Below, piece after piece: positions 7,258-32,000 of a stretch of DNA of 32,000 bases (within the stretch, counting starts at the first letter, position 1; every line of letters begins with the position of its first letter). The stretch is from Desulfocapsa sulfexigens DSM 10523 (GTDB taxonomy: Bacteria; Desulfobacterota; Desulfobulbia; Desulfobulbales; Desulfocapsaceae). The notes beneath the pieces were generated by a model. It saw nothing but the letters and a program-made list of their open reading frames with translations, had not been told where the DNA came from and did not search any database. The DNA lies in NCBI RefSeq assembly GCF_000341395.1, contig NC_020304.1, positions 2,010,001 through 2,042,000 on the forward strand, given 5' to 3'. The translations under genes and the position numbers were made by a program.

Positions 7258-7318
7258 ATTATTGGCGCCTATTGTATTGCTGTTGAAATAGGGAAGATTT
7301 TCCCCAGTTATTTTTTAA

Positions 7319-8362: not shown

Positions 8363-8373
8363 TGGTTCTCTTG

Positions 8374-9603
8374 CTATGTCGCACCAACATATTTTGGGCG
8401 CGATTTTGTAGGTTCATGTGTTTTTCTTAATATTGCTGATGAGTAAGCAATAAGTAATCCAAAATAAAATGCCCCGGGTGCCATTAGATGTCCAGAGTAT
8501 ATATTTACTAAAAACAAAATGACATATCCCATAACCAGAGATGGTGTAAACGGATGACGGATCTTATAGCTTTTCAAAACAAGTATTAACATTTTGATAT
8601 GTAGCCATATTAAGAAACTTATCCCCAGCAAACCGAAATCGTGCATCAGCTGAATCCAGTCACTGTGAGCGTATTTTCCGCTCTTATTCATGATCTCACC
8701 GTAGTATATGTATCCCGTGTACCTTTGTACCGATTGAATACCGAAGCCGAATATGATATTCGATGGTTCGCTATGGATCCAATGGCTTATTAGCATTGAG
8801 TACATCCGGTCTCTGCCCGACCCACTGGTATCCTGGAAGCGCGTTTGGATAGCATCCCAGTTTGTGGCTAGAGCATACGAACTGATGATTGTCAGGATTA
8901 TGAGTACTTTGAGTAGTTTGATGAGTTTTCGTATATTACCATGTATTATTATATAAGTTAATCCGTAAGCAAAAAGAGATAAGACAAGGGCAATCATCGC
9001 TCCTCGTTTAACCGTTAGTAAAATTGCGAAGATGGCCAATGCAAAACCAAAATTTTTCAATCGGGATTTTTCTGTCATAAATAATAGTGGAAGGCACCAG
9101 AGTAAAAGATAGGCGCCTGCATTTTGTCCAGCTTCTGTTTCGGGTAATGTCATAAAATAGATGGTAAAGCCTGCACTGATCAAAATTGTTGAAATGATCA
9201 TTTGTTGCAATTTTTTTTTTGAGAAAATACCTGAAAGAGAAAGTCTATAAGCTACCACTGTTGCAATCAACCAAAAGATAATTCTTATGGAATAATACAG
9301 ATTATCTAGAATATTTAGTGAAAGTGCGGAGTAAATGATATTTAGTGCCGCATAGAAAGTTAGAAGATGGCCAAAGGGGAAATTGAATTTTCGGAATTGG
9401 AAACCTGTGCGTAGGAGATAGATAGAAAGCATGGCAAACAGGAGTGCACGAAGGCTCTTACTGAAAGGAAAATCAACCAGGCCGAGATCATAAAGCCAGT
9501 CCGACAAAACAAGTAGCACTACTCCAACATAAAGGTAGCGCATAGTGAAACGATCCGCTAGAAATTGGTAATTTGTTATCCTGTTTTGCTTGGATGTGGA
9601 CAT
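8374..9603 (-). CDS. O-antigen polymerase/ligase family membrane protein (Wzy_C domain), probable repeat-unit polymerase
   Basis: 409 aa, strongly hydrophobic and multi-TM. It has a periplasmic-loop signature YAHSDWIQLMHDFGLLG (H-x-D/N-x..L..G..G, as in the Wzy_C/O-antigen ligase family). It contains an A10 tract at 9211..9220. Confidence 0.75.
   Translation of the reverse strand: MSTSKQNRITNYQFLADRFTMRYLYVGVVLLVLSDWLYDLGLVDFPFSKSLRALLFAMLSIYLLRTGFQFRKFNFPFGHLLTFYAALNIIYSALSLNILDNLYYSIRIIFWLIATVVAYRLSLSGIFSKKKLQQMIISTILISAGFTIYFMTLPETEAGQNAGAYLLLWCLPLLFMTEKSRLKNFGFALAIFAILLTVKRGAMIALVLSLFAYGLTYIIIHGNIRKLIKLLKVLIILTIISSYALATNWDAIQTRFQDTSGSGRDRMYSMLISHWIHSEPSNIIFGFGIQSVQRYTGYIYYGEIMNKSGKYAHSDWIQLMHDFGLLGISFLIWLHIKMLILVLKSYKIRHPFTPSLVMGYVILFLVNIYSGHLMAPGAFYFGLLIAYSSAILRKTHEPTKSRPKYVGAT
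9211..9220 (-). repeat. A10 (coding-strand) homopolymer inside the Wzy_C polymerase gene
   Basis: The plus strand reads gcaa-tttttttttt-gag. The coding strand ttc tca aaa aaa aaa ttg encodes FSKKKL. Confidence 0.9.
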
Positions 9604-9614
9604 TGTTGTCTTAA

Positions 9615-10754: not shown

Positions 10755-10757
10755 GCC

Positions 10758-11830: not shown

Positions 11831-13132
11831 TTAGAGACATGTGGTTGGTAATTTTTTTATGTATTTTGTTGCTTTTAGAATGTAAACTGTTGCTAAGATA
11901 ACTTCGCCTGCTAACAAAGCTATAGCCGCACCAGTTGCTCCAAAATGTGGTGCTAAGATTAAACAAGCTGTTAACGACACCATACCTGCTGCTAATCTAG
12001 CCGAAAAGAATACTTTGTCTATACGTAGTAAAATTATGAATTGTCCCAAAAGAATATCAAAGACATAGGCTAGCAAACAAATTCCAAATAATCTAAGTAC
12101 CCAATAGCCGTTCGCATACTCAGGGATAAAAAATGTAAGCAGTATCTTTTTCGGAATAACAATTGCGGGCAATGCAATTATACTTACAGCAAGTATAGCA
12201 AAGGCAAGATAGATAACTAAAAAATGGATGATACCCCGTCCAGAGATTGAGCCTGGAGTGGTTTGTCGTGCTAAAATTGGTCTGCCTATTCGCGCAATAT
12301 TTTTCAGGAGCAACGTACCGATACTAAGCAACTGGAAGGAAGCGCCATACACACCTAAGTCAGAAAATCCTGCGGCATGTTTTAACGCTATGCTATTCAA
12401 TGCGGTCAAGGCAAGAGTAGCTAGGCTAGCCATCCACAACCATTTATTACTACTTAATAAAGCAAAAATAGATTTTTTAGTATGTTTTATCGACATGCCT
12501 TTCAGGTTCGGTGTGAGCCGTTTCCATGCATAGTGATATTGTAGAATGAGGAAAAATAAGACAGCAATAGTTAGGGCACCACCAATCAGTTCGAGATTTA
12601 GACGTGCCGGTTCCAAGAACAAAACAGTCCAAATTAGTATAAAGTATATTGTTCTTTCAGCACATGAGTATATAGCATGGCGCCCCTGACATTCCCAGAC
12701 ATCAAAAACGTTGGCTATTTGTAAGGGGCTTAACATTGTTGCTATACAAATCCAAAACATCCCCCAAGAGATATTTAGAATGGAGTCTGGTAGAGTGACC
12801 AGTATAAGCAAGGTGATGCTACAGAGGCAAAACAGCAATCCGCGAATTAACAAACTAACCGTCAATGTTTCATTGAAGCGCCCTGGGTAATGAGTGAGAT
12901 CTCGAATTAGCGAACGATCCATGCCAAAACGGATATTGGCCGCTAGAATGGTGCCAACAGCTATTGCGTATGTAAGCTCACCAAACTTTGCTGCTCCTAG
13001 TGCGTTGGCTATTTTGATAGTCGTGACAAACCCCAGTCCTGCCATGTAAATATTAGAGAACAATAAAATGCTTAGGTTATTCAGTCGTCCGCGTTGTGTT
13101 TTGAATAGTGTTTTTATATAAGCTGTGTGCAT
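11831..13132 (-). CDS. wzx: Oligosaccharide/polysaccharide flippase, Wzx (MOP superfamily)
   Basis: 433 aa, hydrophobic throughout (about 12 TM segments by eye). The N-terminal LLFSNIYMAGLGFVTTIKIANALGAAKFGELTY is typical of Polysacc_synt/Wzx proteins. It sits in a Wzy-type locus. Confidence 0.75.
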   Translation of the reverse strand: MHTAYIKTLFKTQRGRLNNLSILLFSNIYMAGLGFVTTIKIANALGAAKFGELTYAIAVGTILAANIRFGMDRSLIRDLTHYPGRFNETLTVSLLIRGLLFCLCSITLLILVTLPDSILNISWGMFWICIATMLSPLQIANVFDVWECQGRHAIYSCAERTIYFILIWTVLFLEPARLNLELIGGALTIAVLFFLILQYHYAWKRLTPNLKGMSIKHTKKSIFALLSSNKWLWMASLATLALTALNSIALKHAAGFSDLGVYGASFQLLSIGTLLLKNIARIGRPILARQTTPGSISGRGIIHFLVIYLAFAILAVSIIALPAIVIPKKILLTFFIPEYANGYWVLRLFGICLLAYVFDILLGQFIILLRIDKVFFSARLAAGMVSLTACLILAPHFGATGAAIALLAGEVILATVYILKATKYIKKLPTTCL

Positions 13133-16100: not shown

Positions 16101-17113
16101 TGGAGTACAATTGTAAGCGATTGTTGAGGCGACCTAAGACTGCACCAGTCTCCACATGCTGTTCCTGATTGTATTGTTGTATCTATAGTATTCTTTCTGT
16201 GAATGAGAGAAAAGTTTGATGATTTTGACATGAAATGAGGGAAATCAGTTTGTGCCATTGATGTCTGCTCATTTTCAGTTACAGGGATCTCTATAACTTG
16301 CCCGGTGTCATGGTTGCTAATGTCAAACAGGGCTGTAGACTGCTCTTGGAGCATGGTTGAAAAATGTATCTGGATATTCTTAAACCAGACCTTGTTGGTA
16401 TCTTCTGTTAAAACAAGTTGGTGGACTATTTTTACATATGGGCTGTTGGCATAGAAATGCATCCAGATAATACCACGTGCAATCTTCTCAGACTTGTTTT
16501 CGGATATGTACCATCCTTCCTTGCGGATGACTGTCCACATAGGCCCTTTTACAAGGAAACTGGTACTGAGTTCACTTGATTTTCCCCCAAAAACAGCTTT
16601 GTTACCTTGATTGTCTATTACTGTTGCACCTTTTCCGCTCTGGTAAAGGATTCTTTTGTTTTGAATAACTGCATTTGTGATTAAGGCATCATCATTATTG
16701 ATGGAAAATGTACCGGCTCCAGTATCGATTGTGACGCCGTGGTTGTCTTCAGTAATGGATATACCATTTATTGTTTGTTCAGTCGGGAAGGTTTCATCTA
16801 TAGTGAGATGGTATTGTTTGCTTTGAAAACCGTGGAAATTTAGAAGCACCCATCTAATGCTCCCATCTAACCATGTAGCTGTCACATCTATTTGACACGG
16901 AACCGCAGTGCCATTTTCTTCTCTTAGGACGAGCTGTTTAATATCGGAAAGGGTTTTTTTGGGGAATGGGACTCCTGTTGCGATTGGCCAGCTTTTTACT
17001 GACTGCTCTGGGTAATTTATTGTAATAGGGATTGATTCTATAGCTGCTGCGTTGTTTGTATATATGCAACAAGAGAAGAGTATGGAGACTAGGATGATGA
17101 TACACTTTTTCAT
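13184..17113 (-). CDS. Large secreted (or lipo-) protein of unknown function with a C-terminal LamG/concanavalin-A-like domain; possibly a polysaccharide-active enzyme
   Basis: 1309 aa. The N-terminal signal peptide is MKKCIIILVSILFSCCIYTNNAAA, with either an SPI site after AAA or a lipobox-like LFSC. The C-terminal ~200 aa show a LamG pattern (GTIEFYYKPDWS, WIHIAVTWD, IFINGKKY, YQVLRISDIVR). The N-terminal WPIATGVPFPKKTL..NGTAVPCQ..WLDGSIRWVLLNF resembles PcRGLX/YetA-type lyase N-domains, from memory only. Confidence 0.6.
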   Translation of the reverse strand: MKKCIIILVSILFSCCIYTNNAAAIESIPITINYPEQSVKSWPIATGVPFPKKTLSDIKQLVLREENGTAVPCQIDVTATWLDGSIRWVLLNFHGFQSKQYHLTIDETFPTEQTINGISITEDNHGVTIDTGAGTFSINNDDALITNAVIQNKRILYQSGKGATVIDNQGNKAVFGGKSSELSTSFLVKGPMWTVIRKEGWYISENKSEKIARGIIWMHFYANSPYVKIVHQLVLTEDTNKVWFKNIQIHFSTMLQEQSTALFDISNHDTGQVIEIPVTENEQTSMAQTDFPHFMSKSSNFSLIHRKNTIDTTIQSGTACGDWCSLRSPQQSLTIVLQDLAEQFPKELTVSKSGITAALWSERGGKELDFRTETLVKDYWGKWTNYADIGESGVLTIPSNAQASAKTHTLWVLPHTANQTIKEIESIANTASRGVISLPGNKWLCDSGTMGPPMLPKDTQQFPVAEKFISDFFDKTVLVPQHLFPLTGYIAWGSNPATRYNKDPETNEYYATWWRISGLVDYHLRKNVWTLYARSGERKYFDYGTKFNRFAGDMNMHHWDYGPVGNYKDRSWKVKGGFAYGLLPNNLNLKGGEGVGSYPIYWRWVSGKPDGSGADISNYLLQFYLTGDWEMWELAKNFGEAVKKYSFLQTPESRRGAFVPLRYLTWLYSMNWDPELGKQLHSLAEDIIDLNSPNGVSLNMPPGPLYKISRNAIALLDYYRLTEAPLAREGFLKMIDYQYRFELGDYAKPIAYQNASGMYYTMAWRMTGEDKYLQLARRSMEASTSQYKEILKSSKGSPEYYGQSFNYHACLSLPIIMKGLKDYKGIVKQLPVLKKVFDSTSVSMAVFEKSPGQALNIEVLFNVAQEDHVTPILLGPDQKPVKNHHILKVEKRLAQRDVPGITPFYYHLEIPASNIAGTYRLGHDNRGDFTILNTNAKHIVLECPEGFWLEKDEPFFFFVDSKLTHINLFANKEVTITKSNQTPAVESTGKTYGDLSIPTNGTNGLWKIQSEDPAFVKFKDITPYIAFLSPDRYFFPTSPKLPNQYGTQNTSTSAQATQLKSNEGIQLTGDQTIRFPRGKSLSDGSYENFPGLKGTIEFYYKPDWSAVDLLIPGKRDLSIPLLSAGDIQIRYRYGQGHRFYAFLDFLCGTSKYAKRENKTKFGTHARLFPKQGQWIHIAVTWDATATTDTTKEHGAQKYSHAREIFHIFINGKKYKRIWSFPSKLHSRLGKQATNDFSLANIPEWIALGPGSGTYQVLRISDIVRYEDNFVPFVIPDKQDKSTKVLLQTNEILGALNRQGKKIPVKCKKF

Positions 17114-17151: not shown

Positions 17152-19482
17152 TTACTCAAGAGCTTGTAATTGGAACTTGATCTTTTCATTACCTGGGTCG
17201 AGAATCAGGGCCTGTTCGTATTCCTGTTTGGCTTGTAATAGGGCTTTTTGCTCTTTGTAGTGGTTCGCTAAAGTGACATGGAAGGGGGCGTAGCTTGGTA
17301 GCCATTTAATTCCGAGTTGAAGGATATTCACGGCATCGGCTGTACGATTCTGTTTTTTATAAAACCAGAAAAGTTGCATGAAGTATTGAGGCTTTATATG
17401 TTTTTCTACTTCGAGAAAATCTAAGGAGCGACTTCGATAGTATTCAGCCTCTTCAATGTCCCCAGCTCTTTCAAAATATTCACCAAGTGTTATCCAGGCA
17501 GCCGTTGTTGAAGGGTAAAATAATGCGATTTCTTCTCGTGTTAGATCCGCAGCCAATATAAAAGCAGGGAGATTACGGGCCACTTCTGGATATCTTTCCG
17601 TACCTTGCCTTAAGATACCAAGAGCCTGTTCAGTTTTTTCTTGCTGCAAATACCATTCTGCCAGAGTAAATATCATCTTCTCTTTGTTCTGACTTCTTTT
17701 GTAACCCTCCTCCATGAGAAATGATGCTTGGTTATAGCTACTCAGAGGAAGGGAGAGTCCGATTCTTTGAAGATATGTACCTTCGAGAGGATCCCTTTCG
17801 GATGCATGAAGGAAGTTGTTGAATGCAGGCTGGTTTTGTTGAAGGTAAGAAAAAATAGTACCTCTATAAGAATAGTAGAGCCCTTCCAGCGGGTCAAGGG
17901 AGATAGCATTGTTTATTGTCGTTAATTGTTTTTGGAGAAGCTTTTCGGAAAGCCTGGGGTTGAGATAGATTTTTGAGGCCTCTTTGTGCAGTTGTGTTGC
18001 TTTGATTATTCCTCCCTGGAAGGCAAGAGTCAGGAGGAGTAATGGAAGGGCGACCAGGAAGCTTAGTTTCCAGTATGAAGGCGCTTCTTGTAACAAGGTT
18101 GGTCTGTTGCGAAAATGAATGCGGGTGTTTCCTGCTGATATCAGGATTCCACAGAGCAGGAAGAAATAGAGCCCGTTGGCTCCATTATGCATATTAAAAT
18201 CAAATATGCTGTGGACAAGGATTGATAAAATAGCGGAGAGGCTACCAATAATAAGAAAAATTGAATAGGTGTCTTTCCGGAGCGTGAGACCTTTGAAACC
18301 ATGTTTTAAGATTGTAAAGACAAAAAAGGCGCTTAGTAGAAAACCGATAAGTCCACCATCGGTGAGCAACTCTATGTAGTCGTTGTGGGCATGGCCAACT
18401 GTCCTTGAGTCGGGTTGGATATTGTATTGCGGGTAGGCGTGAACGAAAGTGCCAAATCCTGTGCCACTGAGAAGGTTGTCTTTGATGAGTGGGGCGCAGG
18501 CTTGCCATATTTGCCATCGACCAAAGACCAGGGTGCCTGTTTCGGTTGTACTGGAGTTGAACCTTGCGAATAAAGAATCCCAGCCAAACCATGTCATTGC
18601 CAGTAATACGCCTCCAATAATAACGGTGGGCAGTATTAACCCAGTGTTTTTTGTCTTTTTACTAGCAAGCAGTAAAAAGAATAATAGTGCCAGTGTGGCT
18701 GAGATAGTACCGCCGCGAGAGAGGCTGAGGAAAATAGACGCAAGAATAAGAACAGCGCCAAAACCTAAGAAAAAATGAATATTTGATCCTGGCGTTGAGA
18801 ATATGGAAACTATGTTGTGTCGGAATGTCCGGTGTGTCGTCTTGTGTGGTCGATAGAAAAAAAACAGGGCCAAAACTATTGGAAACAACAGCTCCATGAA
18901 TCCTGCGTAGTGGTTATAATTGATCCAGGGGCCGAATGGCTGGGTTCTTTCTGGAACGGGGCGAAACCAGTAGATAAGATCGGGTGATGTGAATTTTTGA
19001 AGAATTGCTAAAAAGGCTATTATGGTAGCAAGGCCTGCAATAATTTTGACGGTTTTTTTGAGAAGGGATGAATTACTTAAAAGTTGTACGGTGAGTATGT
19101 AAAAGAACGCATAGGAAGTGATACGGAGAGCTTCAAGTAAAGTGGATTTTTGGTTGACTGTTAATGGTATCCATTGATTATTCTCTTGTAGATCGAGTAT
19201 GGGGGCGTATGCCTGGTAAATACCGGGTGCGATAAAGCTCACAAGTGAGGGGGGGAGTGGTATTAATTGTACCCACATAAATAGCAACAAGAGGAATAAA
19301 GGAATAGCACCGGGAACTTTTAAAGGCACTTGTGACTTGTGACGTATTTCCCAGCAGTAGATGATTGTTGTCAGGAAGATCAGAGCTTCAACAAGACCTA
19401 TTGACCATGTTTCAACGCTGCCAAAGGCGAGTGGTGCGAATAGAAGGATTGCAACAAAGAGCTTGTAGGAGATGTGTTGCAT
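17152..19482 (-). CDS. O-antigen ligase family (Wzy_C) membrane protein fused to a C-terminal TPR-repeat domain, paralogue 2
   Basis: 776 aa. The multi-TM N-terminal ~470 aa carry GHAHNDYIELLTDGGLIGFLL (Wzy_C signature). The C-terminal ~280 aa are TPR-like (AEWYLQQEKTEQALGILRQGTERYPE; YKEQKALLQAKQEYEQALILDPGNEKIK). Confidence 0.85.
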   Translation of the reverse strand: MQHISYKLFVAILLFAPLAFGSVETWSIGLVEALIFLTTIIYCWEIRHKSQVPLKVPGAIPLFLLLLFMWVQLIPLPPSLVSFIAPGIYQAYAPILDLQENNQWIPLTVNQKSTLLEALRITSYAFFYILTVQLLSNSSLLKKTVKIIAGLATIIAFLAILQKFTSPDLIYWFRPVPERTQPFGPWINYNHYAGFMELLFPIVLALFFFYRPHKTTHRTFRHNIVSIFSTPGSNIHFFLGFGAVLILASIFLSLSRGGTISATLALLFFLLLASKKTKNTGLILPTVIIGGVLLAMTWFGWDSLFARFNSSTTETGTLVFGRWQIWQACAPLIKDNLLSGTGFGTFVHAYPQYNIQPDSRTVGHAHNDYIELLTDGGLIGFLLSAFFVFTILKHGFKGLTLRKDTYSIFLIIGSLSAILSILVHSIFDFNMHNGANGLYFFLLCGILISAGNTRIHFRNRPTLLQEAPSYWKLSFLVALPLLLLTLAFQGGIIKATQLHKEASKIYLNPRLSEKLLQKQLTTINNAISLDPLEGLYYSYRGTIFSYLQQNQPAFNNFLHASERDPLEGTYLQRIGLSLPLSSYNQASFLMEEGYKRSQNKEKMIFTLAEWYLQQEKTEQALGILRQGTERYPEVARNLPAFILAADLTREEIALFYPSTTAAWITLGEYFERAGDIEEAEYYRSRSLDFLEVEKHIKPQYFMQLFWFYKKQNRTADAVNILQLGIKWLPSYAPFHVTLANHYKEQKALLQAKQEYEQALILDPGNEKIKFQLQALE

Positions 19483-19601
19483 ATTTTATTGTTCCCTGTG
19501 AAATGGTCCTTTCAACTGTTTTTTCTCATCACACTATTCATTGATCGTTCATTGGATGCCCTACAGAAAGAATTTTATATCCATACAAAGATCAAAATCG
19601 G

Positions 19602-19621
19602 TTCTGGAAATGTCTCCAGAA
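19602..19621 (-). terminator. Weak hairpin, possible attenuator or terminator between the two Wzy_C-TPR paralogues
   Basis: ttctgga-aatgtc-tccagaa forms a 7-bp stem with a 6-nt loop. On the minus-strand transcript it is followed by CCGAUUUUGAUC. A second 7-bp hairpin, aagtaat-acccgaa-attactt, lies at 19637..19657. Confidence 0.2.
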
Positions 19622-19689
19622 TGGAGTTCGTTTCAAAAGTAATACCCGAAATTACTTCTTCAATGAAGATTCACTTAAGATATCAATTG

Positions 19690-22020
19690 CTACTTGATGC
19701 TCTCTAAACGTTTTTTAATTGTTTCATTACCAGGTTCGAGAATTAATGCCTGCTCGTATTCCTCTTTGGCGCGGTATGGGATGTCCTGCTTTTTGTAATA
19801 ATCTCCCAGGTGGATATGAAAGGGAGCGTAGTCCGGTAACCATTTGATGCCAAGGTAGAGCGTGTTGACTGCCTCATCTGTTCTTTTTTGTTTTGTGTAA
19901 AAATAAAACAACTGCATAAAGTACCCAGGCTGGATGGTTTCTTCCTGTTCCAGGAAGTCCAGGGCATGGCTTCTGAAATACGCACTGTTTGTAAGCTGTC
20001 CTGATTTTTCGAGATACTCTCCAAGTGCTATCCAGGCGGATGCTTTGGGAGGGAGGGCGGCACTCATCTCTTCTCTTCTGAACTTGTAGAATTGAAAGAA
20101 TGCAGGAATACGTTTGGCTATATTAGGAAACTGCTCGGTACCTTGTTTGAGAACAGTCAGTGCCTCTTCGCGATCACCCTGTTGCAGATACCATTCTGCA
20201 AGGACAAAGACGAGTTGTTCTTTGTTAAGGCCCTTTTTGTAACCTTCGGCCATTAAAAGAGACGCCTGTTCCTTTTTCTCTGGTGGTAACAGGAGTGCAA
20301 TCCTTTGCAGGTAAGCCCCTTCAAGAGGATCTTTACGGCTGGCCAGGATATAATTGTCCAATGCCTCTTTATTTTGCTCAAGATACGAAAGGAGGTTCCC
20401 TTTGTAGGAGGAGTAGAGTCCCTCCAGGGGGTCAAGTTGGATGGCTTTGTCAATTGTTACCAGTTGCTCCTGGAGGAGTTGTGTAGACAGTTGCGGGTTT
20501 AGGTAAATTTGGGAAGCCTTACTGTGGTACTGTTGTGCTTTAAAGATTCCGCCCTGAGTGGTGATGGTCATGATAAGGAGTGGAAGGGCGGCCAGGTAGC
20601 CCAGTTTCCATACTGAAGAGACTTCTTTGAGTAATGTTGGCCTCTTGCGAAAGTGTAGCCGGGTGTTTCCGGCGGAGACGAGAACTCCGCAGAGGAAGAA
20701 AAAGTAGAGCCCGTTTGCTCCGTTATGCATGTTAAAATCGGTGATGCTGTGGATAAGGATTGCGAATATTCCACTAAGGCCAGCGATAATTAACAGGGTG
20801 GAATAGGGTTCACGGCGCAGGGAAAGCTTTCTGATACCGTTCTGAAAGATTGTGATAACAAAACATGCCGCAAGCAGAAAACCAATAAGGCCACCATCGG
20901 TGATAAGTTCCAGATAGTCATTATGGGCATGATCGAAAACATCGGATGTGGGGAAGTTACTGTATTGTGGAAACGTGTGGATGAAAGTACCCCAGCCGGA
21001 TCCGGTGAAAAGGAAGTCTTTGATGAGTGGGGCCAGGTTTACCCATAAAGGTAATCTGCCTTCAGTTATGGAGCCATCTCCGGTTGTGGTAGCATTAAAG
21101 CGTTCAAGAATGGGATCCCAGCCGAACCAAGTCATGGTAAGCAGAATACCTCCGACGATTATCAGTGGGAATATGCTTCCAGTTTTCTCGGATTTTTTTG
21201 TAAAAAGAATCAGAAAAAAGAACAGGGCCAGGGTTGCAGCAATAATCCCGCCTCGTGAAAGTCCTATAAAGATAGATGTCAGGATAAGTACAACACTGAA
21301 TCCCAGGAAAAAATAAATATTTGAAGCCGGTGAAGACAATATCGAAACAGCCTTGGAACGAAACGATTGCTTATCTGTGAATTTGGGCTTGTAGTAGAAG
21401 GAGAGGGCAAGCACCAGTGGAAAGACTAACTCCATAAATCCCGCGTAATGATTTCTGTTTACCCATGGTCCAACGGGACTTGCGTTTTCGGGAGCCGGCC
21501 GGAACCAGTAAATAGTGTCGGGAGATGTGAATTTCTGCAGAATCGCTAGAAAGGCAATGGCTGTGGCAAGTCCCGCAACTATTTTTACGGTTTTGGTGAG
21601 GAGTTCCCTGCGGCTCAAGAGCTGTACTGTGAGAATATAAAAAAATGCGTAGGAAGTAATCCGAAGGGCTTCGAGCAGGGTGGACTTTTGATTAACAGTT
21701 AGTGGAATCCATTGATTATTGTCCTGTACGGCAAGTATGGGGGCATATGCCTGATAGATACCGGGTGCAATAAAATTTACCATTGAAGGTGGAAGTGGCA
21801 TCAGTTGCAGCCACATAAAAGCAAGTAGAAGAAAGAGAGGGAGCAGGCCGGGAACTTTTAGTAATGCGTCTGATTTGTGACGTGTTTCAAAGCAGTACAC
21901 AAAAGTTGTCAGGAAAACAAGACCTTCAACAATCCCTATTGACCATGTTTCTACACTTCCGAAGGCGAGTGGTGCGAAAAAAAGGATTGCAACAAAGAAC
22001 TTGTAGGAGATGTGTTGCAT
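19690..22020 (-). CDS. O-antigen ligase family (Wzy_C) membrane protein fused to a C-terminal TPR-repeat domain, paralogue 1
   Basis: The ORF extends to 22047, but the internal ATG at 22020 gives MQHISYKFFVAILFF, collinear with the paralogue start MQHISYKLFVAILLF, and exactly 776 aa. About 19 nt upstream of both ATGs is conserved (CACAGGrAACAATA). The Wzy_C motif is DHAHNDYLELITDGGLIGFLL. The TPR tail ends EEYEQALILEPGNETIK. Confidence 0.85.
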   Translation of the reverse strand: MQHISYKFFVAILFFAPLAFGSVETWSIGIVEGLVFLTTFVYCFETRHKSDALLKVPGLLPLFLLLAFMWLQLMPLPPSMVNFIAPGIYQAYAPILAVQDNNQWIPLTVNQKSTLLEALRITSYAFFYILTVQLLSRRELLTKTVKIVAGLATAIAFLAILQKFTSPDTIYWFRPAPENASPVGPWVNRNHYAGFMELVFPLVLALSFYYKPKFTDKQSFRSKAVSILSSPASNIYFFLGFSVVLILTSIFIGLSRGGIIAATLALFFFLILFTKKSEKTGSIFPLIIVGGILLTMTWFGWDPILERFNATTTGDGSITEGRLPLWVNLAPLIKDFLFTGSGWGTFIHTFPQYSNFPTSDVFDHAHNDYLELITDGGLIGFLLAACFVITIFQNGIRKLSLRREPYSTLLIIAGLSGIFAILIHSITDFNMHNGANGLYFFFLCGVLVSAGNTRLHFRKRPTLLKEVSSVWKLGYLAALPLLIMTITTQGGIFKAQQYHSKASQIYLNPQLSTQLLQEQLVTIDKAIQLDPLEGLYSSYKGNLLSYLEQNKEALDNYILASRKDPLEGAYLQRIALLLPPEKKEQASLLMAEGYKKGLNKEQLVFVLAEWYLQQGDREEALTVLKQGTEQFPNIAKRIPAFFQFYKFRREEMSAALPPKASAWIALGEYLEKSGQLTNSAYFRSHALDFLEQEETIQPGYFMQLFYFYTKQKRTDEAVNTLYLGIKWLPDYAPFHIHLGDYYKKQDIPYRAKEEYEQALILEPGNETIKKRLESIK

Positions 22021-22074
22021 ATCGTATTGTTTCCTGTGAGAATTCAAGACTGTTATTTGTAATAAAGATTACGT

Positions 22075-22103
22075 ATTTTACATGCCTTATGATGAAATAT
22101 CAA
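22075..22103 (-). promoter_or_regulatory. Candidate sigma70-type promoter for the Wzy_C-TPR / assembly-decoration operon
   Basis: On the minus strand: TTGATA (22103..22098), a 17-nt spacer, then TAAAAT (22080..22075), about 55 nt upstream of the ATG at 22020. It is divergent from the ATPase promoter. The AT-rich context raises the chance of a spurious match. Confidence 0.35.
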
Positions 22104-22286: not shown

Positions 22287-23690
22287 ATGATGCGACGACA
22301 CCAGTTTCAATTTCTCTCTTCATGGCTGCACAACAAAAACCGTAAACCTTTAATTATCCGTGGTGCGAGACAGGTAGGCAAGTCAACATTAGTAGAATTA
22401 TTTGCCAAGGAGCAAAATCGAAATCTCTGTAATGTTAATCTGGAACGTTACCCAGAATTATCTGCGGTTTTTTCAGGGAAAGATCCAGGGCAGATTCTGC
22501 AGGAGATAGAGTTTCTCCCTAATCAGAGTGGAATCAGTGGTGACACTCTTTTGTTTCTTGATGAAATACAGGCTGTCCCTGAAGCAATCCCTGCTTTACG
22601 GTATTTTTATGAAGATATGCCAGACTTTCCTGTTGTTAGTGCCGGTTCACTGTTGGAATTTGCATTGGCAGACCATACTTTTTCCATGCCTGTTGGAAGG
22701 ATACAGTATTTACATATGGGACCCATGACTTTTAGTGAATTTCTTCTGGCAACAGGTGAGGACAAACTTTACAATTTTATTCATCAATATGAGGTAGGGC
22801 AGGAAATTGGAGAGGTCGCTCATCAGAGGTTGTTGCAATTACTTCGGTCCTATTATTTCGTTGGCGGCATGCCTGAAGCTGTCGCAGTTTTTGGAGAAAC
22901 GCGCAGCTATAGGGCTGTTAGCGAGATACATAACTCCATAATCGAAACCTACCGTGATGATTTTCCCAAATATGCGGGATCAAGAAACTTGAGTCGAATG
23001 CAGAATGTTTTTAATTTCGCAGCCAGAAATGTTGGTGTAAAAGTAAAGTACTCTAATATTTCATCACGGGATCAGAGTGTTACAATCAGAAAAGATATAG
23101 AATTGCTGACAATGGCAAGGGTGATAGGTAAAGTTGTTCATAGTAATTGCTCCGGCTTGCCAATACAGGCTGAAAATAAGGAGCGAGTGTATAAACTGCT
23201 CTTTTTGGATATAGGTCTGATGAATGCTATTTGCGGCCTGGATTGGAGAAATCTTTCTCAAATGGACGAGAAGAAGGTTATTAATCAGGGTGCTATTGCA
23301 GAACAATTTGTGGGCCAGCATCTGCAGGCAATGATGGCTGACAAGCCGAATCGTGAATTGAATTATTGGTTGCGGGAGGGAAAATCATCTAACGCTGAGC
23401 TGGATTATGTTGTTGGCTTAGGGGGGAGGATTATCCCAATAGAGGTGAAATCAGGTGCAACCGGAACATTAAAATCCCTGCATCAGTTTATGGGAACAAA
23501 AAAAACTGACCTTGCTGTTCGGTTTGATGCTAATCTGCCAAGTAGTCAGCAGGTCAATACTGTAATTAACGCAGATAAAGAATGCAGGAACGTACAGTAT
23601 CAGCTCATTTCACTGCCCCTATATCTGGTAGAGCGGCTTGAATCGCTCATTTCTGAACGTAGGACGTTGACACAGCACCTGGAAAATTAA
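22287..23690 (+). CDS. AAA-family ATPase with a DUF4143-type C-terminal PD-(D/E)xK nuclease-like domain
   Basis: 467 aa. Walker A is RGARQVGKSTL and Walker B is LLFLDEIQ. The C-terminal NAELDYVVGLGGRIIPIEVKSG matches the D..(E/I)xK restriction-endonuclease-fold motif seen in the AAA_14/DUF4143 family. It is the only plus-strand gene. An SD-like GGGGG lies 7 nt upstream of the ATG. Confidence 0.8.
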   Translation: MMRRHQFQFLSSWLHNKNRKPLIIRGARQVGKSTLVELFAKEQNRNLCNVNLERYPELSAVFSGKDPGQILQEIEFLPNQSGISGDTLLFLDEIQAVPEAIPALRYFYEDMPDFPVVSAGSLLEFALADHTFSMPVGRIQYLHMGPMTFSEFLLATGEDKLYNFIHQYEVGQEIGEVAHQRLLQLLRSYYFVGGMPEAVAVFGETRSYRAVSEIHNSIIETYRDDFPKYAGSRNLSRMQNVFNFAARNVGVKVKYSNISSRDQSVTIRKDIELLTMARVIGKVVHSNCSGLPIQAENKERVYKLLFLDIGLMNAICGLDWRNLSQMDEKKVINQGAIAEQFVGQHLQAMMADKPNRELNYWLREGKSSNAELDYVVGLGGRIIPIEVKSGATGTLKSLHQFMGTKKTDLAVRFDANLPSSQQVNTVINADKECRNVQYQLISLPLYLVERLESLISERRTLTQHLEN

Positions 23691-24727: not shown

Positions 24728-24803
24728 AGTTGAACGATTGATGAGTTAACAGGAGAAATCAAAACGGGTTCTATGCCCTACCCAATTTATAAATGAATTC
24801 GGG

Positions 24804-25832: not shown

Positions 25833-26007
25833 TGTATGAGTACTTTATTTCTAAACTCTTTATGGAACAAGTAAGGGAATAATTTCCAGCTTCTTTGGGT
25901 ATTATGAAAAGCTGCATAGGCTGAAGGATATTTTACTGAAGGAAAAAAATAGCATTACGAAAGCCCTTCCGCCTTTCTGTGCCTTCCGCCTCGTAACCTA
26001 TTTTAGC

Positions 26008-27444: not shown

Positions 27445-29673
27445 TTATTCCTTATCGTAGTATTCGTAATATCCATAGTACCCGGAATCTTTTTTACTTC
27501 TGATGATTCCATTGATCACAATACCAAGGATAGGGGTGTGGATGTCTCGCAGCTTCTTTAATCCGGAATCCAGCATATCGTAGGTGGTCTTTCCCGATCT
27601 GGCAATCAGCAGTACTCCATCTACGATGGCACTGAGGGTGAGGCTGTCTGTCACACGTTGAATAGGGGGAGAATCGAGGAGCACGAAGTCATAAAACTTC
27701 ATTGTTTCATCCATGAGCAGCTGCATTCTTCGTGATTGTAGTAATTCAGCCGGGTTCGGAGGTATGGGGCCTGATGTAATAATAGAGAGTTTCTCATCCG
27801 GGATTGGTCTGATAGGATTCTTTTTGGTGTCGCCGGTGAGGTAGTTGCTTAATCCAAAGGAATTTGGAACATTGAAAAGAGAGTGGGTGCGTGGTCTGCG
27901 CATGTCACAGTCAATAATCAGTACTTTCTTGTTGTTCTGAGAAAGAACCCTGGCGAGGTTGCATGTTGTGGATGTTTTACCCTCTTTTGGTGACATACTG
28001 GTAATTAAAAGAGAGCGTGGAGGATGATCCGGGGACGACAGGAGCAGGCTGGAACGGATCAGACGATAATTCTCCGAAAGTGGCGACAGCGGGTGCTCAA
28101 GAATATGCGATTCTATTGCCTCGTCTTTGCCTTGGAGCTCTTCAACTGTTCCCAGCACCGTTAAATCGAAACGCTGCTCAACATCTTTCCCGTCCTTTAC
28201 GGTGTTGTCCAGGTATTCGATAAAGAATGCCAGGCCAATGCCACCAAAAAGGCCAAGAATGAGGCCCAGCAGGAGGTTACGCTTTTTTTGCGGTTTTGAT
28301 GGTGAGGAGGGGAATTCCGCTTTTTTTACAACCCATATCTTAATTTCCTGAGACTGTTCGGTGACACTGGCTTTCTTAATGCTGGAGGTGAGGGCATCGT
28401 AGAGTACCCGGTTCATATCAACATCCCTTTTCATAATGGTGTATTGAGTGAACCTCTCGTTTATGTTGAGCATCTCGTTTTTGGTCTTGGCGAGCAGCTG
28501 CTTGAGATTTTCTTCCCGAGATTTGGCAAGCTCATAGCTGTTGCGGGTTGAGTCTATAATTCTATCCACTTCGATTTTCTTTTCTCTTAACAACAGGGCC
28601 TGTTCAGCTTTGGCGTTGATCATTACCGGATGCTTGTAGCCATATTTTTTAGAGAGATCTTTGATCTTTTGCTCTGTGGCAAAGATTTGATCACGAAGAT
28701 TCTGCAATACCTTGTTTTCAGCAAAAATGGGGATTGTCTCTATATTATCGTAGTTTTCCCCCAAAGCTTTGATTTGTGCATAGAGCGCTTCAAATTCTTG
28801 CTGTTCTGTCTGTGCCTTGGAAAGCTTGGAACTGAACTCAGAGAGTTTTTCCGGGTAGACTGCGAGCTTGTTCTCGACGGTTACCAGGTCGTTATCTCTC
28901 ATGTATTGCTGCAGGGCAAGTTCTGCTCCTTCGAGTTTTTTACGTTCTTCAGCTGCCTTGCTTGTCATCCACTGCAGAGAGTAGTTACTCGATGCAAGTT
29001 TTATTTCCAGGATTTGATCCATATATGCCTGAATCATGGCGTTCGTGACCAGTTTTGCTATTGCCGGATTTTTGTCACTGTAGCTGATTATGACGGTTTT
29101 GGTGTTGGCCACAGGCTTGATGGAAAGCCCACCCATGATTTTCGCAGCAATGATTTCTGCATCCGTTTTTGGCTCATTGGCAATAAGTAATCCGGATCCT
29201 TCTGTGTTCGTTTCAGATCCCTCAGGGGCTGAGGAGAAAAAGCCTTTGATGAAATCCTTGATTCCGGTCTTGAATGATGAGAGGAAGCTGAACAATCCTT
29301 CCTTTTCTTCGCTGAAAAAATAATGTCTGTATTTGGTGTCCAGTTGCAGTTGCTTGACAACCCTTTGAGTAACGTCTGTGCTGCGAATTAACTCAAATTG
29401 AGTAGTCAGGAAGTCAGGATCCCAGCGGTAATAGGAATTACCGCCCTCAATGGCACTCGATGAGGTGTTTCGTTCGATAAGAACCTGGGACGAGGCAGTA
29501 TAGATGGGGGTGGCAGTATAAGTAGCTATGAAAACAGTAAGGAAAGTGATAGCCAGAAACGTAAGAACCGTTGTCTTGCGTTTGAGGATTACGCTGATGT
29601 AATCACGAAGGTGGATTTCCTGTTCCTGTGTATCCTGGAAAGCAGGTTGCTGTGTCGGGGGGATAATGTTCAT
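27445..29673 (-). CDS. Polysaccharide co-polymerase (PCP-2a) / BY-tyrosine autokinase, Wzc/GumC-like
   Basis: 742 aa. It has an N-terminal Wzz-type domain with TM1 (VLTFLAITFLTVFIATY), a long coiled-coil periplasmic region, and TM2 (LLLGLILGLFGGIGLAFFIEYL). The kinase domain has Walker A SPKEGKTSTTCNLA, Walker A' LIIDCDMRRP and Walker B DFVLLDSPP. The tail is Tyr-rich (SGYYGYYEYYDKE). Confidence 0.9.
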   Translation of the reverse strand: MNIIPPTQQPAFQDTQEQEIHLRDYISVILKRKTTVLTFLAITFLTVFIATYTATPIYTASSQVLIERNTSSSAIEGGNSYYRWDPDFLTTQFELIRSTDVTQRVVKQLQLDTKYRHYFFSEEKEGLFSFLSSFKTGIKDFIKGFFSSAPEGSETNTEGSGLLIANEPKTDAEIIAAKIMGGLSIKPVANTKTVIISYSDKNPAIAKLVTNAMIQAYMDQILEIKLASSNYSLQWMTSKAAEERKKLEGAELALQQYMRDNDLVTVENKLAVYPEKLSEFSSKLSKAQTEQQEFEALYAQIKALGENYDNIETIPIFAENKVLQNLRDQIFATEQKIKDLSKKYGYKHPVMINAKAEQALLLREKKIEVDRIIDSTRNSYELAKSREENLKQLLAKTKNEMLNINERFTQYTIMKRDVDMNRVLYDALTSSIKKASVTEQSQEIKIWVVKKAEFPSSPSKPQKKRNLLLGLILGLFGGIGLAFFIEYLDNTVKDGKDVEQRFDLTVLGTVEELQGKDEAIESHILEHPLSPLSENYRLIRSSLLLSSPDHPPRSLLITSMSPKEGKTSTTCNLARVLSQNNKKVLIIDCDMRRPRTHSLFNVPNSFGLSNYLTGDTKKNPIRPIPDEKLSIITSGPIPPNPAELLQSRRMQLLMDETMKFYDFVLLDSPPIQRVTDSLTLSAIVDGVLLIARSGKTTYDMLDSGLKKLRDIHTPILGIVINGIIRSKKDSGYYGYYEYYDKE

Positions 29674-29699: not shown

Positions 29700-30512
29700 T
29701 TAAAAAAAACTTTCAGGGACAACAACGACATCGTTGGCAAGGACAGAGGTGCCATGATCGACATTCTTGAGGATAGTTTTCTCCCCATTGACAATTCGTA
29801 CAATATCGATCCCGGATTTGGATGCTTTGCCGGTGAAACCGCCTGCACGTGCGATTAGTTTAAGGACTGTACTTTCATTATCACAGGTGTAGGCATCGGG
29901 ATTCTTGACTTCACCTGTTACATAGCACATACCGCCCTTGGATATGTAAATGGTGTCTCCATCCTGAATGAGGATGTTTTGGCTGAGATCTCCTCCCTCG
30001 ACCATGGAATTGATGTTTACAACGAGTACTTCCTTTTTTCCATCCTTGGTTCTTTTAATGGTTGCAGTATCACCAGCACCCTCCTTCAGGCCACCGGCTT
30101 GGGAAACGATCTCAAGAAAGGTGGTTGCGCCACGTAATTCTGCTATTCCAGGCTTGTATACCTGTCCGAGAATTACGGCTTTTTTTGAGCGAAATTCTTC
30201 TATGAAAATATTTACCTGAGGGTTTACGATGTAGCCATCAGCCAGGAGTGTCGTGAGCTTCTGAGTAACTTCTGTTAAGGACATGCCGCCAACATGAACC
30301 AGGCCGATAAAGGGGATAACAATTGAACCGTCGTTTGAGACCCGGACTGTTTTCTGTAAATCCGGGTGATCATAAACATCAATTTTCAAGACATCGCCGG
30401 AACCAACGATGTAATTATCGGCAAGGCTGTTTGTGGAGAAACAAAGCAGGATTGTCAGGCAGAACGTAGCAAAGAACAAATAAGTTTGAAAAGGAAATTT
30501 CACATTACACAT
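29700..30512 (-). CDS. Short outer-membrane polysaccharide export (OPX) protein, Wza-like (Poly_export + SLBB domains, no C-terminal OM helix)
   Basis: 270 aa. Signal peptide FFATFCLTILLCFSTNSLA, then YIVGSGDVLKIDVYDHPDL..VSNDGSIVIPFIGLVHVGGMSLTEV..YIVNPQVNIFIEEFRSKKAVILGQVYKPG (Poly_export). An SLBB-like repeat follows (GDTIYI..CYVTGEVKNPDAY..TVLKLIARAGG). Confidence 0.88.
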   Translation of the reverse strand: MCNVKFPFQTYLFFATFCLTILLCFSTNSLADNYIVGSGDVLKIDVYDHPDLQKTVRVSNDGSIVIPFIGLVHVGGMSLTEVTQKLTTLLADGYIVNPQVNIFIEEFRSKKAVILGQVYKPGIAELRGATTFLEIVSQAGGLKEGAGDTATIKRTKDGKKEVLVVNINSMVEGGDLSQNILIQDGDTIYISKGGMCYVTGEVKNPDAYTCDNESTVLKLIARAGGFTGKASKSGIDIVRIVNGEKTILKNVDHGTSVLANDVVVVPESFF

Positions 30513-30670: not shown

Positions 30671-32000
30671 TTATAGCGCAGAATTCAAACTAAAGGAAAC
30701 AGTGTTTGTGTCATACTCGTAAATTTCATCGGTTGAATTCCTTTGTTCCCATGTGTAGGCAAGTTCAGCCATTAGCCAGTCATTAAAAATATACTGCAGG
30801 GCAGGGCGGAGGATAAAGCGATCATCATCACGTTTAGGGCCAGTTATTTGATTATAGTCAGCGTTTTCATATGTGAAATCCAGCATTCCTATAAAATCTT
30901 CAGCGAATTCCTGATTGTAACGGAACGTCCCGCCAAGAATTCTTTTATCCAGTGCCTCCGTACTGTCAGTTTCCTCTATCTGATGATGCATGCCAAGGGA
31001 AAGGCTTGTTTTCTGGGTGACCTTGTACTGAACGTCCAGCTCAAAAATAAGTCCGTCATTGTTTGAGTTATAGGAGTTTTCGCTGATATCGTTTACTGCT
31101 TTGTCTTTATACTCACGTGTCTGATAACCTGCTTTGAAGTCTATCGAAGTTTTGGTGGAGGCAATCCAGCTTATACCGCCGTATATGGAGTCCTGATCAT
31201 TGTCTTTGTCAGTTTCGGTGTCGTAACTTACGTCTATGTACCTGTACTCCAGAAAAAGTGCGGTTTTCGGACTGAATGTGAAAATACCGTAAAGTGAAAA
31301 GGCATTATCAGTTCTGTTGAGGAAAGCATCATCAACTTCCTTGTAGTCGAGAAAGAAGTTCGAATAGTCGACCTTCAGGCCGATTTTTTCTGTAATGTCC
31401 CAGATAACATTAAACAAAGCTATATTTGAATTATAACGTCTTAAGCTTATTTCACCGAGGAAGTTACCAATATCAAAGCGATCCTGGCTACGGGTGTAAT
31501 GGTCAACAAGCTCAAAAGAAAGGCCGCTTCTCAGGTTAAGTTTGAAGAAACCTTCAACGTTGGCGTCGTAATCGTTTAATTCTGAATCTTCAGAATAATA
31601 TTTAAAGTCCAGTGCACCGAGGATATAGGCATTATATCGCTCAAATCCGGGGTAATCGGGTAGGGCCATCTGAAGTCCGCCCGGGGTCGAGTTGTTTGGA
31701 GCAATGGCAAGCGGCACCTCCTTTGTCCTGGGAAATGCGAGCCAGATACCTGGAGACAATGTCGTCAGGAAGTTACTCTTTTCATCTGTATAGACATTGA
31801 AAAGGTTGTCGGTGTATTCACCGGCGACACTGAAGAAGGGATGTATATAACCACCACCCTTAGTTCCGAAAAGATCGTCATCATCCGTCTGGAGGTTGTC
31901 TTCCGGCAGAAGAGATTCGGACGTTCCCGATGGTCCCTGTCCCATGGGGGTGTCCTGGGCTGGAGCAACCGCATCGGTTTGGGCGACGACAGTCATTTTG
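30671..32000 (-). CDS. Outer-membrane beta-barrel protein, probable partner of the short OPX protein; 5' end probably beyond the right window edge
   Basis: The track ORF starts at 31996, but the frame is still open at 32000 and no signal peptide precedes MTVVAQTDA. The rest shows repeated amphipathic beta-strand patterns with aromatic girdles (ALDFKYYSE, FFKLNLRSGLSFELVDHY, LKVDYSNFFLDYKE, FSLYGIFTFS, LFLEYRYIDVSYD, LIFELDVQYKV, MAELAYTWEQRN). Confidence 0.65.
   Translation of the reverse strand, partial: KMTVVAQTDAVAPAQDTPMGQGPSGTSESLLPEDNLQTDDDDLFGTKGGGYIHPFFSVAGEYTDNLFNVYTDEKSNFLTTLSPGIWLAFPRTKEVPLAIAPNNSTPGGLQMALPDYPGFERYNAYILGALDFKYYSEDSELNDYDANVEGFFKLNLRSGLSFELVDHYTRSQDRFDIGNFLGEISLRRYNSNIALFNVIWDITEKIGLKVDYSNFFLDYKEVDDAFLNRTDNAFSLYGIFTFSPKTALFLEYRYIDVSYDTETDKDNDQDSIYGGISWIASTKTSIDFKAGYQTREYKDKAVNDISENSYNSNNDGLIFELDVQYKVTQKTSLSLGMHHQIEETDSTEALDKRILGGTFRYNQEFAEDFIGMLDFTYENADYNQITGPKRDDDRFILRPALQYIFNDWLMAELAYTWEQRNSTDEIYEYDTNTVSFSLNSAL

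Follow-up and report, generated by a model that had tools for sequence, protein, structure and literature searches.

A 32,000-nt stretch of the Desulfocapsa sulfexigens DSM 10523 genome (contig NC_020304.1, positions 2,010,001 to 2,042,000; the whole stretch is hereafter called the window) contains two adjacent genes, A and B, which each encode a Wzy_C membrane domain fused to tetratricopeptide repeats (TPRs). The models and alignments are best explained if A and B are functional paralogues of a large uncharacterised family that combines a WaaL/Wzy_C fold of 13 predicted transmembrane helices with about eight TPRs predicted to be periplasmic. We favour a ligase-type role, in which a lipid-linked glycan would be transferred to a conserved acceptor held by the TPR arm, and give this reading a probability of roughly 0.4. 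To our knowledge, it is not settled how the chains of Wzx/Wzy-type capsules and exopolysaccharides are released from their lipid carrier and finally attached. A fixed WaaL-like transferase with a protein-binding arm in the export module would be a concrete and testable candidate for the release step, and the module is found in hundreds of genomes, including those of cable bacteria, Desulfobacterales and Thermodesulfovibrionales. Such an enzyme may define a new class of O-linking glycan transferase that could be useful for glyco-engineering.

A preliminary description of this DNA, made from the letters alone, had noted two adjacent genes for proteins of 776 aa, and these could be confirmed as the minus-strand open reading frames 17152..19482 and 19690..22047, the latter with an ATG at 22020. 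BLASTP aligns the two proteins from end to end with 504/776 identities (65%), 79% positives and 0 gaps, and as the E-value is 0 the resemblance is not due to chance. The count of about 22 mismatches in the first 135 aa proved to be exact (22 mismatches, 83.7% identity), and the TPR tail is indeed more diverged (56.9% identity over residues 496–776); overall, divergence between the two proteins is greatest in the large periplasmic loop and the TPRs. The Pfam Wzy_C domain (PF04932) covers residues 242–384 with 86.8 bits in A and 76.0 bits in B (cut-off 31.7), and both Pfam and the 13-helix model agree with the earlier picture of a Wzy_C domain followed by TPRs after the final transmembrane helix in each protein. 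The reported motif HAHNDY[IL]EL[LI]TDGGLIGFLL reads HAHNDYIELLTDGGLIGFLL in A and HAHNDYLELITDGGLIGFLL in B, and the shared leader of 18–19 nt (CACAGGrAACAATA..ATG) reads CACAGGGAACAATAAAATATG in front of A and CACAGGAAACAATACGATATG in front of B.

When the Protein Data Bank was searched with a profile of the membrane domain, the sole solved relative was the O-antigen ligase WaaL (7TPG, E 2.7e-13). Full-length queries, both in profile searches of this database and in Foldseek, were dominated by generic TPR matches, and it was the profile of the membrane domain alone that exposed WaaL. An AlphaFold2 (AF2) model of B, built on an alignment of 114 sequences, has a predicted local distance difference test score (pLDDT) of 87.6 and a predicted TM-score (pTM) of 0.83, and contains 13 long membrane helices. 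With this full-length model Foldseek matched 7tpg_B over the membrane part (E 1.1e-6, target-normalised TM-score 0.55).

The catalytic residues point in the same direction. R256 and R322 are invariant in the family alignments (25 and 114 sequences) and are kept in both A and B. H364 and H366 are invariant in two alignments of 25 sequences and at least 90% conserved in the one of 114 sequences, where A365 is invariant. The HAHNDY region aligns with EHAHND of WaaL 7TPG, and R256, R322 and H364–H366 align with the Arg, Arg and His of the same protein. In Escherichia coli WaaL the corresponding residues R215, R288 and H338 are important for function, and they are conserved in the PglLs (R224, R298 and H349 in PglL; PMC3643930). 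The Pfam score, the Arg-Arg-His set and the WaaL-like polytopic fold thus all place the family in the Wzy_C superfamily. A further conserved motif, H-S-x-x-D-F-N-M-H-x-G at residues 424–434, does not align with WaaL residues.

Transmembrane segments were taken from the AF2 helices together with Lys and Arg counts, as a simple Kyte-Doolittle scan gave overlapping segments. On the model helices, the density of Lys plus Arg is 17–23% in the predicted cytoplasmic loops vs. 3–4% in the periplasmic loops. From this bias, and because the catalytic loop of WaaL is periplasmic, the N-terminus is predicted to be cytoplasmic and the TPR domain periplasmic. As far as the prediction tells, the TPRs are therefore not in the cytoplasm, a placement that the preliminary description had named as evidence against an acceptor role. 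Many of the invariant residues of the family (25-sequence alignments) are carried by the periplasmic loops, which suggests a conserved partner or substrate.

The TPR arm has about eight repeats in each protein. Several Pfam TPR families match at residues ∼580–770, with TPR_2, TPR_14 and TPR_19 above their cut-offs, and the model of B shows 16 TPR-type helices at residues 513–775. The best structural matches of the tail are the TPR superhelices of OGT, SPY and designed consensus TPR proteins (E 1e-40 to 1e-15 for consensus TPR and OGT). A homologue search with the TPR domain alone returned seven proteins of 187–420 aa, mostly on contigs of <3 kb, and no other architecture.

Family distribution and the export module

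The Wzy_C-TPR fusion is no peculiarity of this locus. It turned out to be a widespread single-copy core gene that adjoins Wzc. A search of 5.8 billion proteins gave 635 matches, and the best 120 are almost all 770–795 aa long with the same architecture. In an exhaustive search of 1.84 billion cluster representatives we found 885 clusters (50% identity) at E ≤ 1e-30, and most of the top 150 of these are collinear with the query over residues 1–775 at 28–56% identity. The family as a whole keeps about 30–60% identity and a constant length across phyla.

Wzy_C-TPR relatives are encoded on 565 stretches of a collection in which each species is represented by one genome. The hosts include Desulfocapsa, Desulfopila, Desulforhopalus, Desulfosediminicola and the cable bacteria Electrothrix and Electronema, and further Desulfobacula, Desulfospira, Desulfotignum, Thermodesulfovibrionales (Nitrospirota) and SAR324. 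The closest named relatives in this collection are from metagenome-assembled genomes (MAGs) of Desulfocapsa (53–55% identity).

Synteny was examined in 80 loci from these stretches, spanning Desulfobulbales to Nitrospirota. Essentially every locus with enough flanking sequence has an outer-membrane beta-barrel protein (OMP), Wza, Wzc and the Wzy_C-TPR gene (X) on one strand, in the order OMP-Wza-Wzc-X, with Wzc as the immediate upstream neighbour of X in nearly all of them. No second family copy was found within 10 kb in the 80 loci; split matches are interrupted reading frames. The fixed order, the single copy and the constant length identify the Wzy_C-TPR gene as part of a conserved export block and not of a variable cassette. 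In two binned genomes a second whole module stands at a separate locus (L013/L057 and L034/L072), and the X proteins within each pair are 61% and 65% identical. Paralogy elsewhere has therefore arisen by duplication of the whole module and not by tandem duplication of one gene.

The glycan cassettes that follow the module differ. The cassette of the window encodes a sulfotransferase, ATP-grasp enzymes and AsnB, whereas that of the metagenomic contig L001 encodes MurA/MurB-like proteins and GT4 glycosyltransferases, and each of the two carries its own Wzx and its own plain Wzy_C. Many genomes have no cassette within 10 kb after the family gene.

Two further elements accompany the module in the relatives. 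Directly before the OMP gene, 46 of the 52 genome loci with >700 bp upstream of that gene have an open reading frame of ∼105–250 aa (median ∼150). The encoded protein carries a Sec-type signal peptide and a helical domain of ∼90 aa (pLDDT ∼90) that includes two invariant Cys residues. The motif QAYTP is likewise invariant, and the tail, in which Pro, Ser, Gly, Ala and Thr are abundant, is disordered (pLDDT < 50). At its end the tail has conserved motifs such as ASPSTF, VSPSTL and ASPSAP, or ISPVRF in Nitrospirota. In 45 close homologues the first Ser of this [A/V]-S-[P/V]-S-T-F-type motif is invariant and usually lies five residues from the end, and S-x-S is found within the last 10 residues in 71 of 95 sequences. 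The small protein belongs to no Pfam or NCBIfam family, no source gives it a name, and its model gave nothing significant in Foldseek (best E 0.37). The second element is a convergent trio directly downstream of the family gene, consisting of a secreted protein of ∼177 aa with an HExxH motif (AHEVGH), a membrane protein of ∼200 aa with a weak HAMP-like match and a protein of ∼217 aa. The trio is complete in 37 loci and partial in five more; in L008 and L091 it flanks the module on the opposite side.

Such fusions are not new in themselves, since databases already label them as O-antigen ligase family or TPR repeat proteins. Full-text literature searches yielded no paper that deals with what a Wzy_C-TPR fusion does, and no description of its fixed place in the module, of the small secreted protein and the trio, or of the core/junction split of the two copies described below.

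Ligase-type transferase or polymerase

According to the favoured ligase reading, the WaaL-like domain would take a glycan linked to undecaprenyl diphosphate and pass it to a conserved acceptor held by the TPRs. The acceptor would most likely be a protein, with the small secreted protein of the module as the leading candidate, modified through the conserved Ser of its tail motif. The repeat-unit polymerase would be the plain Wzy_C protein of the cassette (8374-9603) and not A or B, and the two paralogues would use one Wza-Wzc-OMP exporter in common but different donor glycans and/or TPR partners.

We favour this reading because a conserved enzyme is found with varying glycan cassettes that encode their own Wzy, because the periplasmic loops are very highly conserved, and because TPRs in the periplasm serve to bind proteins. 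C-terminal peptides are the ligands of many TPR domains, such as EEVD for Hop and SKL for PEX5. There is also a precedent in TfpO and TfpM, which belong to the Wzy_C family and glycosylate a C-terminal Ser/Thr of pilin; for TfpM the pilin gene lies immediately upstream, and long polymers are transferred (PMC9829042). Finally, a 280-aa arm would be awkward on steric grounds inside a co-polymerase cage, and WzyE is located inside a cage of transmembrane helices of the polysaccharide co-polymerase (PCP), according to work cited in PMC12819527.

TfpO/PilO, TfpM, PglL and PglS share the superfamily and the catalytic set with A and B (PMC3643930). In the relatives of A and B, the export module includes a small secreted protein whose C-terminus carries a conserved Ser motif, a candidate acceptor. 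In contrast to these enzymes, the family has no PglL_A, its candidate acceptor is not a pilin, and the Ser is usually five residues from the end. Conversely, the O-linking oligosaccharyltransferases have no TPRs, judging by the sizes and architectures given in PMC9829042. The combination of a TPR superhelix with a glycan-transferring domain is also known from OGT/SPINDLY, FlmG and the eukaryotic TMTC O-mannosyltransferases, and the FlmG TPRs bind flagellins. Caulobacter FlmG carries TPR domains and glycosylates flagellins (PMC7591256). The TPR similarity to these proteins is generic, their catalytic folds are unrelated, and they use nucleotide sugars or dolichyl phosphate mannose as donors instead of the proposed undecaprenyl-diphosphate-linked glycan.

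Ligation of the glycan to a protein or another periplasmic acceptor had already been raised in the preliminary description, and the result is mixed. The predicted periplasmic position of the TPRs and the presence of a candidate acceptor in the relatives support it, but several findings weigh against it. The PglL_A motif, which follows Wzy_C in PglL-type enzymes (PF15864; defined in PMC3643930), has no match at E ≤ 0.01 in A or B. The TfpM model NF058641 gives 22.4 bits, for A only, which is far below its cut-off of 600, and TIGR03097 (exosortase-A-associated putative O-glycosylation ligase) gives 41.8 and 35.7 bits vs. a cut-off of 188.1. A Wzy_C protein encoded beside Wzc is a polymerase by default. 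Most related loci have no second Wzy or Wzx within 10 kb, and a separate polymerase is therefore documented for a few genomes only. TviB-like and epimerase genes often lie within the module and would also fit a conserved polymer with a conserved polymerase. As to the candidate acceptor, its conserved Ser is not the terminal residue, unlike the sites of TfpO and TfpM, no pattern of co-variation was seen between the last TPR and the small-protein tail, and both the small protein and the trio lie outside the window, which the OMP frame leaves at 32000.

A more specific form of the ligase reading is that the module makes a protein-linked polysaccharide. The module is here taken as the small protein, the porin, Wza, Wzc and the Wzy_C-TPR protein together with the convergent trio and its HExxH protein. 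The TPR arm would catch the small protein by its disordered C-terminal [A/V]-S-P-S-T-F tail, and the WaaL-like domain would move the finished chain from undecaprenyl diphosphate onto the conserved Ser. We regard this form as unlikely; if true, it would constitute an undescribed release or anchoring step for Wzx/Wzy-type exopolysaccharides, with A and B coupling two glycans or two partners to one exporter.

The strongest alternative is that the family protein acts as a Wzy polymerase dedicated to a conserved polysaccharide, which might for instance contain N-acetylgalactosaminuronic acid (GalNAcA). The TPR arm would dock onto periplasmic portions of Wzc, Wza or the porin, or would steer the chain, much as TPR scaffolds do in synthase-dependent systems. 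A and B would then polymerise two repeat units or linkages via one exporter, and the plain Wzy_C would be a second polymerase or a lipopolysaccharide (LPS) ligase. This is a possibility to be taken seriously, though on balance a doubtful one. Like Wzy polymerases, the family has a Wzy_C domain, many transmembrane helices and a link to Wzc/Wzz-type co-polymerases, and its gene strictly adjoins Wzc, Wza and the OMP. Conserved polymers have conserved polymerases, as seen for WzyE, and paralogous polymerases in one pathway are known from Caulobacter (HfsC/HfsI). In the window and in close relatives the module encloses genes for a TviB-like dehydrogenase and for epimerases, one module has a fused phosphoglycosyl transferase gene upstream (see below), and most modules have no other Wzy nearby. 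TPR proteins moreover connect synthases to beta-barrel porins: in BcsC, PgaA, AlgK and PelB periplasmic TPRs act with an outer-membrane beta-barrel in export (PMC9601211; PMC12220298). In those systems, however, the TPRs are fused to or partnered with the porin of a synthase pathway, whereas in A and B they are fused to an inner-membrane Wzy_C enzyme of a Wzx/Wzy-type pathway with a short outer-membrane polysaccharide export (OPX) protein.

Against a polymerase, the same family gene is followed by cassettes of very different gene content, which have a Wzx and a Wzy_C of their own. Wzy enzymes lie in the variable, glycan-specific region and are highly variable in sequence (PMC12502699), while A and B lie in the conserved block of a family that keeps 30–60% identity and its length across phyla. 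A position in the cassette and high variability are instead features of the plain Wzy_C gene at 8374-9603. The existence of this third gene (409 aa, minus strand) was confirmed, and its proposed role as the conventional polymerase is supported by the fact that it shares the variable cassette with Wzx and the glycosyltransferases. The bulky TPR arm would be hard to fit into a co-polymerase cage, and the conserved small secreted protein would be left unexplained. Even if the family protein were simply the pathway polymerase, the result would remain useful, as a conserved Wzy would then be docked to the exporter by its TPRs.

It is rather improbable that the family protein is a true O-antigen or K-LPS ligase with the function of WaaL, joining the exported glycan to lipid A-core with the TPRs as an accessory. 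WaaL of Cupriavidus metallidurans (PDB 7TPG/7TPJ) is the only solved relative by sequence, has the identical catalytic set and a periplasmic catalytic loop, and the annotation as O-antigen ligase family points the same way. Yet an LPS-core context was never seen, the gene always being found with Wza-Wzc and the porin, and the family differs from WaaL (413 residues in the 7TPG chain) by a 13th transmembrane helix, the 280-aa TPR domain and the motif at residues 424–434. NCBIfam also returned no WaaL model. The best curated matches to the membrane domain were TIGR03097 and TIGR00947 (IctB family; 46 bits vs. a cut-off of 366), both far below their cut-offs.

Origin and divergence of the two copies

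Nearly every homologue is closer to B than to A. The nearest relative of B is P0007 (91% identical), while a single A-type relative was found, P0002 (83% identical), and in a neighbour-joining tree A and P0002 form a long branch beside the clade that holds B. P0002 (contig L001) and P0007 (contig L085) come from one metagenome sample. In the membrane domain, the synonymous divergence (dS) is 0.30 for A and 0.36 for B vs. these respective orthologues. Such equal values fit one organism carrying both types, which suggests a second case of the duplication in one other, metagenomic organism. The two contigs end just before or after their family genes, and an attempted join found no overlap between them.

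Between A and B the proportion of synonymous differences (pS) is 0.76 and that of nonsynonymous differences (pN) 0.22. Since synonymous sites are saturated, the split is old, and a recent tandem duplication in place was rejected. The ratio of nonsynonymous to synonymous divergence (dN/dS) vs. the own orthologue is 0.19 for A and 0.15 for B; when A is split by domain, its membrane part gives 0.10 and its TPR part 0.17. Judging from these ratios, both copies are under purifying selection.

A evolves about twice as fast as B. At 187 sites that are ≥90% conserved, A departs at 13 and B at 3 (family median 5, maximum 18), and the departures of A cluster in the last TPR (residues 739–753) and beside the catalytic His (F336N, D363G). 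On the conserved-site and dN/dS results, pseudogenisation of A was rejected. It is very improbable that A lacks its own function, whether as a redundant duplicate in decay or as a by-product of cassette import: its faster evolution, its mosaic TPR tail and the absence of other sampled genomes that need two copies would fit, but its frame is full-length and gap-free vs. B, all catalytic residues are kept, both domains have low dN/dS, its 13 departures are within the range of the family, and an intact A-type orthologue occurs in a metagenome sample that also holds a B-type gene.

The 5′ ends have a different history from the rest. In the first 40–60 codons pS between A and B is 0.35–0.41 vs. 0.76 overall, and the leader and the first ∼25 codons are nearly identical. 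As the N-terminus of the B-type orthologue P0007 differs from that of B, this suggests local gene conversion between the 5′ ends of A and B.

Gene A also changes towards its 3′ end. Nucleotide identity between A and P0002 is 96–99% over codons 1–150 and 83–98% up to about codon 600, and then falls to 58–71%. At the protein level the membrane domains are 94% identical and the TPR domains 64%, with dS at 0.30 and 1.35, respectively. The drop adjoins non-homologous cassettes, which places the cassette boundary inside the TPR-coding part of A. Gene A is thus a mosaic, with a 3′ part from about codon 600 that is recombinant or cassette-linked. In the favoured ligase reading, B would be the conserved core copy, and A, at the cassette junction, would have had the final third of the TPR domain exchanged along with the cassette. 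The pair would then be a natural experiment in which one copy is conserved and the TPR tail of the other changes along with the glycan cassette.

Surrounding genes in the window and in related loci

Nearly all genes of the window are on the minus strand, and Pfam and NCBIfam matches identify them jointly as a Wzx/Wzy-type exopolysaccharide locus. In the order of transcription it consists of OMP, Wza, Wzc, a dehydrogenase and two epimerases, an AAA_14 gene, B, A and the variable cassette. The features are collected in Table 1.

Table 1. Coordinates of the gene pair, of its surroundings in the window and of related elements in other loci.
Feature	Position	Strand	Remarks
Gene A	17152..19482	minus	776-aa Wzy_C-TPR protein; divergent junction-type copy
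Gene A, membrane domain (residues 1–495)	17998..19482	minus	Collinear with B, gap-free
Gene A, codons H364-A365-H366	18385..18393	minus
Gene A, predicted periplasmic TPR domain (residues 496–776)	17155..17997	minus	Recombinant or cassette-linked from about codon 600
Gene A, leader	19483..19500	minus	CACAGGGAACAATAAAAT; apparently homogenised with B leader and first ∼25 codons
Gene B	19690..22020	minus	776-aa Wzy_C-TPR protein; conserved core-type copy
Gene B, membrane domain (residues 1–495)	20536..22020	minus	13 predicted transmembrane helices, WaaL-like fold (AF2, profile, Foldseek)
Gene B, codons H364-A365-H366	20923..20931	minus	HAHNDY, catalytic His region
Gene B, predicted periplasmic TPR domain (residues 496–776)	19693..20535	minus	About 16 helices
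Gene B, leader	22021..22038	minus	CACAGGAAACAATACGAT; AGGA ribosome-binding site
Near-identical leader and first ∼25 codons, A and B	19483-19560 and 22021-22098
BBP2_2/EpsL-like outer-membrane beta-barrel (OMP)	30671..32000	minus	5′ end beyond window edge, frame open
Wza/OPX protein	29700..30512	minus	Short, 270 aa; Poly_export and two SLBB domains
Wzc-type co-polymerase and tyrosine autokinase	27445..29673	minus	Wzz, GNVR and kinase domains
TviB-type UDP-GlcNAc 6-dehydrogenase and two epimerases	23759-27282	minus	In operon order
AAA_14/DUF4143 ATPase gene	22287-23690	plus	Splits operon between epimerase and B
1309-aa protein	13184-17113	minus	Signal-peptide-like hydrophobic N-terminus; weak PcRGLX-like and GH127-like matches
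Wzx-type flippase	11831..13132	minus	Polysacc_synt (Pfam)
Plain Wzy_C protein	8374..9603	minus	409 aa; Pfam Wzy_C 42.9 bits; between PGA_cap and ATP-grasp, near Wzx
Small secreted protein, examples	L002:3338-3784, L090:4441-4872, L091:2618-3061		Outside window
Convergent trio, examples	L090:12672-14458, L017:12442-14328	minus (L090)	Outside window
Toxin-antitoxin insertions	L002:12418-13061, L086:12786-14324, L091:12691-15156, L085:3712-3763

The short Wza with its Poly_export and SLBB domains, the separate beta-barrel porin and the PCP-2-type Wzc have the features of a class-3 OPX export module, and the short Wza and separate porin fit the concept of a composite OPX/beta-barrel translocon (PMC9601211). 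That this Wza lacks an outer-membrane helix is concluded from its length alone. With NCBIfam, OMP, Wza and Wzc gave weak matches to the EpsL, EpsE, EpsF and EpsG models of exosortase-type loci, and the Pfam and NCBIfam scans found no exosortase or PEP-CTERM protein among the window proteins. No pilin gene is present at the locus. The AAA_14/DUF4143 gene looks like an insertion, as the close relative L085 has the epimerase immediately before its B-type gene.

The cassette after A encodes the 1309-aa protein, Wzx, a sulfotransferase, PGA_cap, the plain Wzy_C, two ATP-grasp enzymes (one recognisable solely through weak RimK-family matches), AsnB and two GT4 glycosyltransferases. Neither the 1309-aa protein nor the plain Wzy_C has an NCBIfam match. 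The former, which directly follows A, is possibly a polysaccharide lyase or hydrolase of the pathway. The sulfotransferase, PGA_cap, ATP-grasp and AsnB genes (4150-11789, minus strand) suggest that the product is a sulfated polysaccharide, and amidation or the addition of amino acids is possible as well. In L091 the genes after the module likewise include a sulfotransferase and an APS kinase.

A promoter-like site lies upstream of B at 22103-22075 (minus strand), and no terminator-like site was found on the minus strand between B and A; across the window, the promoter and terminator scans gave sites no more frequently than in shuffled sequence. Rfam and tRNA scans of the window gave no matches. 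The first ∼1.85 kb (1-1855) contain no open reading frame of at least 100 aa on either strand and have no similarity to open reading frames of related loci.

Just upstream of the module in a 6.4-Mb genome, L090:2802-4283 encodes a phosphoglycosyl transferase (Glycos_transf_4) fused to PilZ, which hints at control of initiation by cyclic di-GMP. Toxin-antitoxin pairs (PIN/RHH, RelB, PhdYeFM/PIN_3 and HepT/MNT-like) are repeatedly inserted right after the Wzy_C-TPR gene, and this junction is therefore a hot spot for insertion and exchange.

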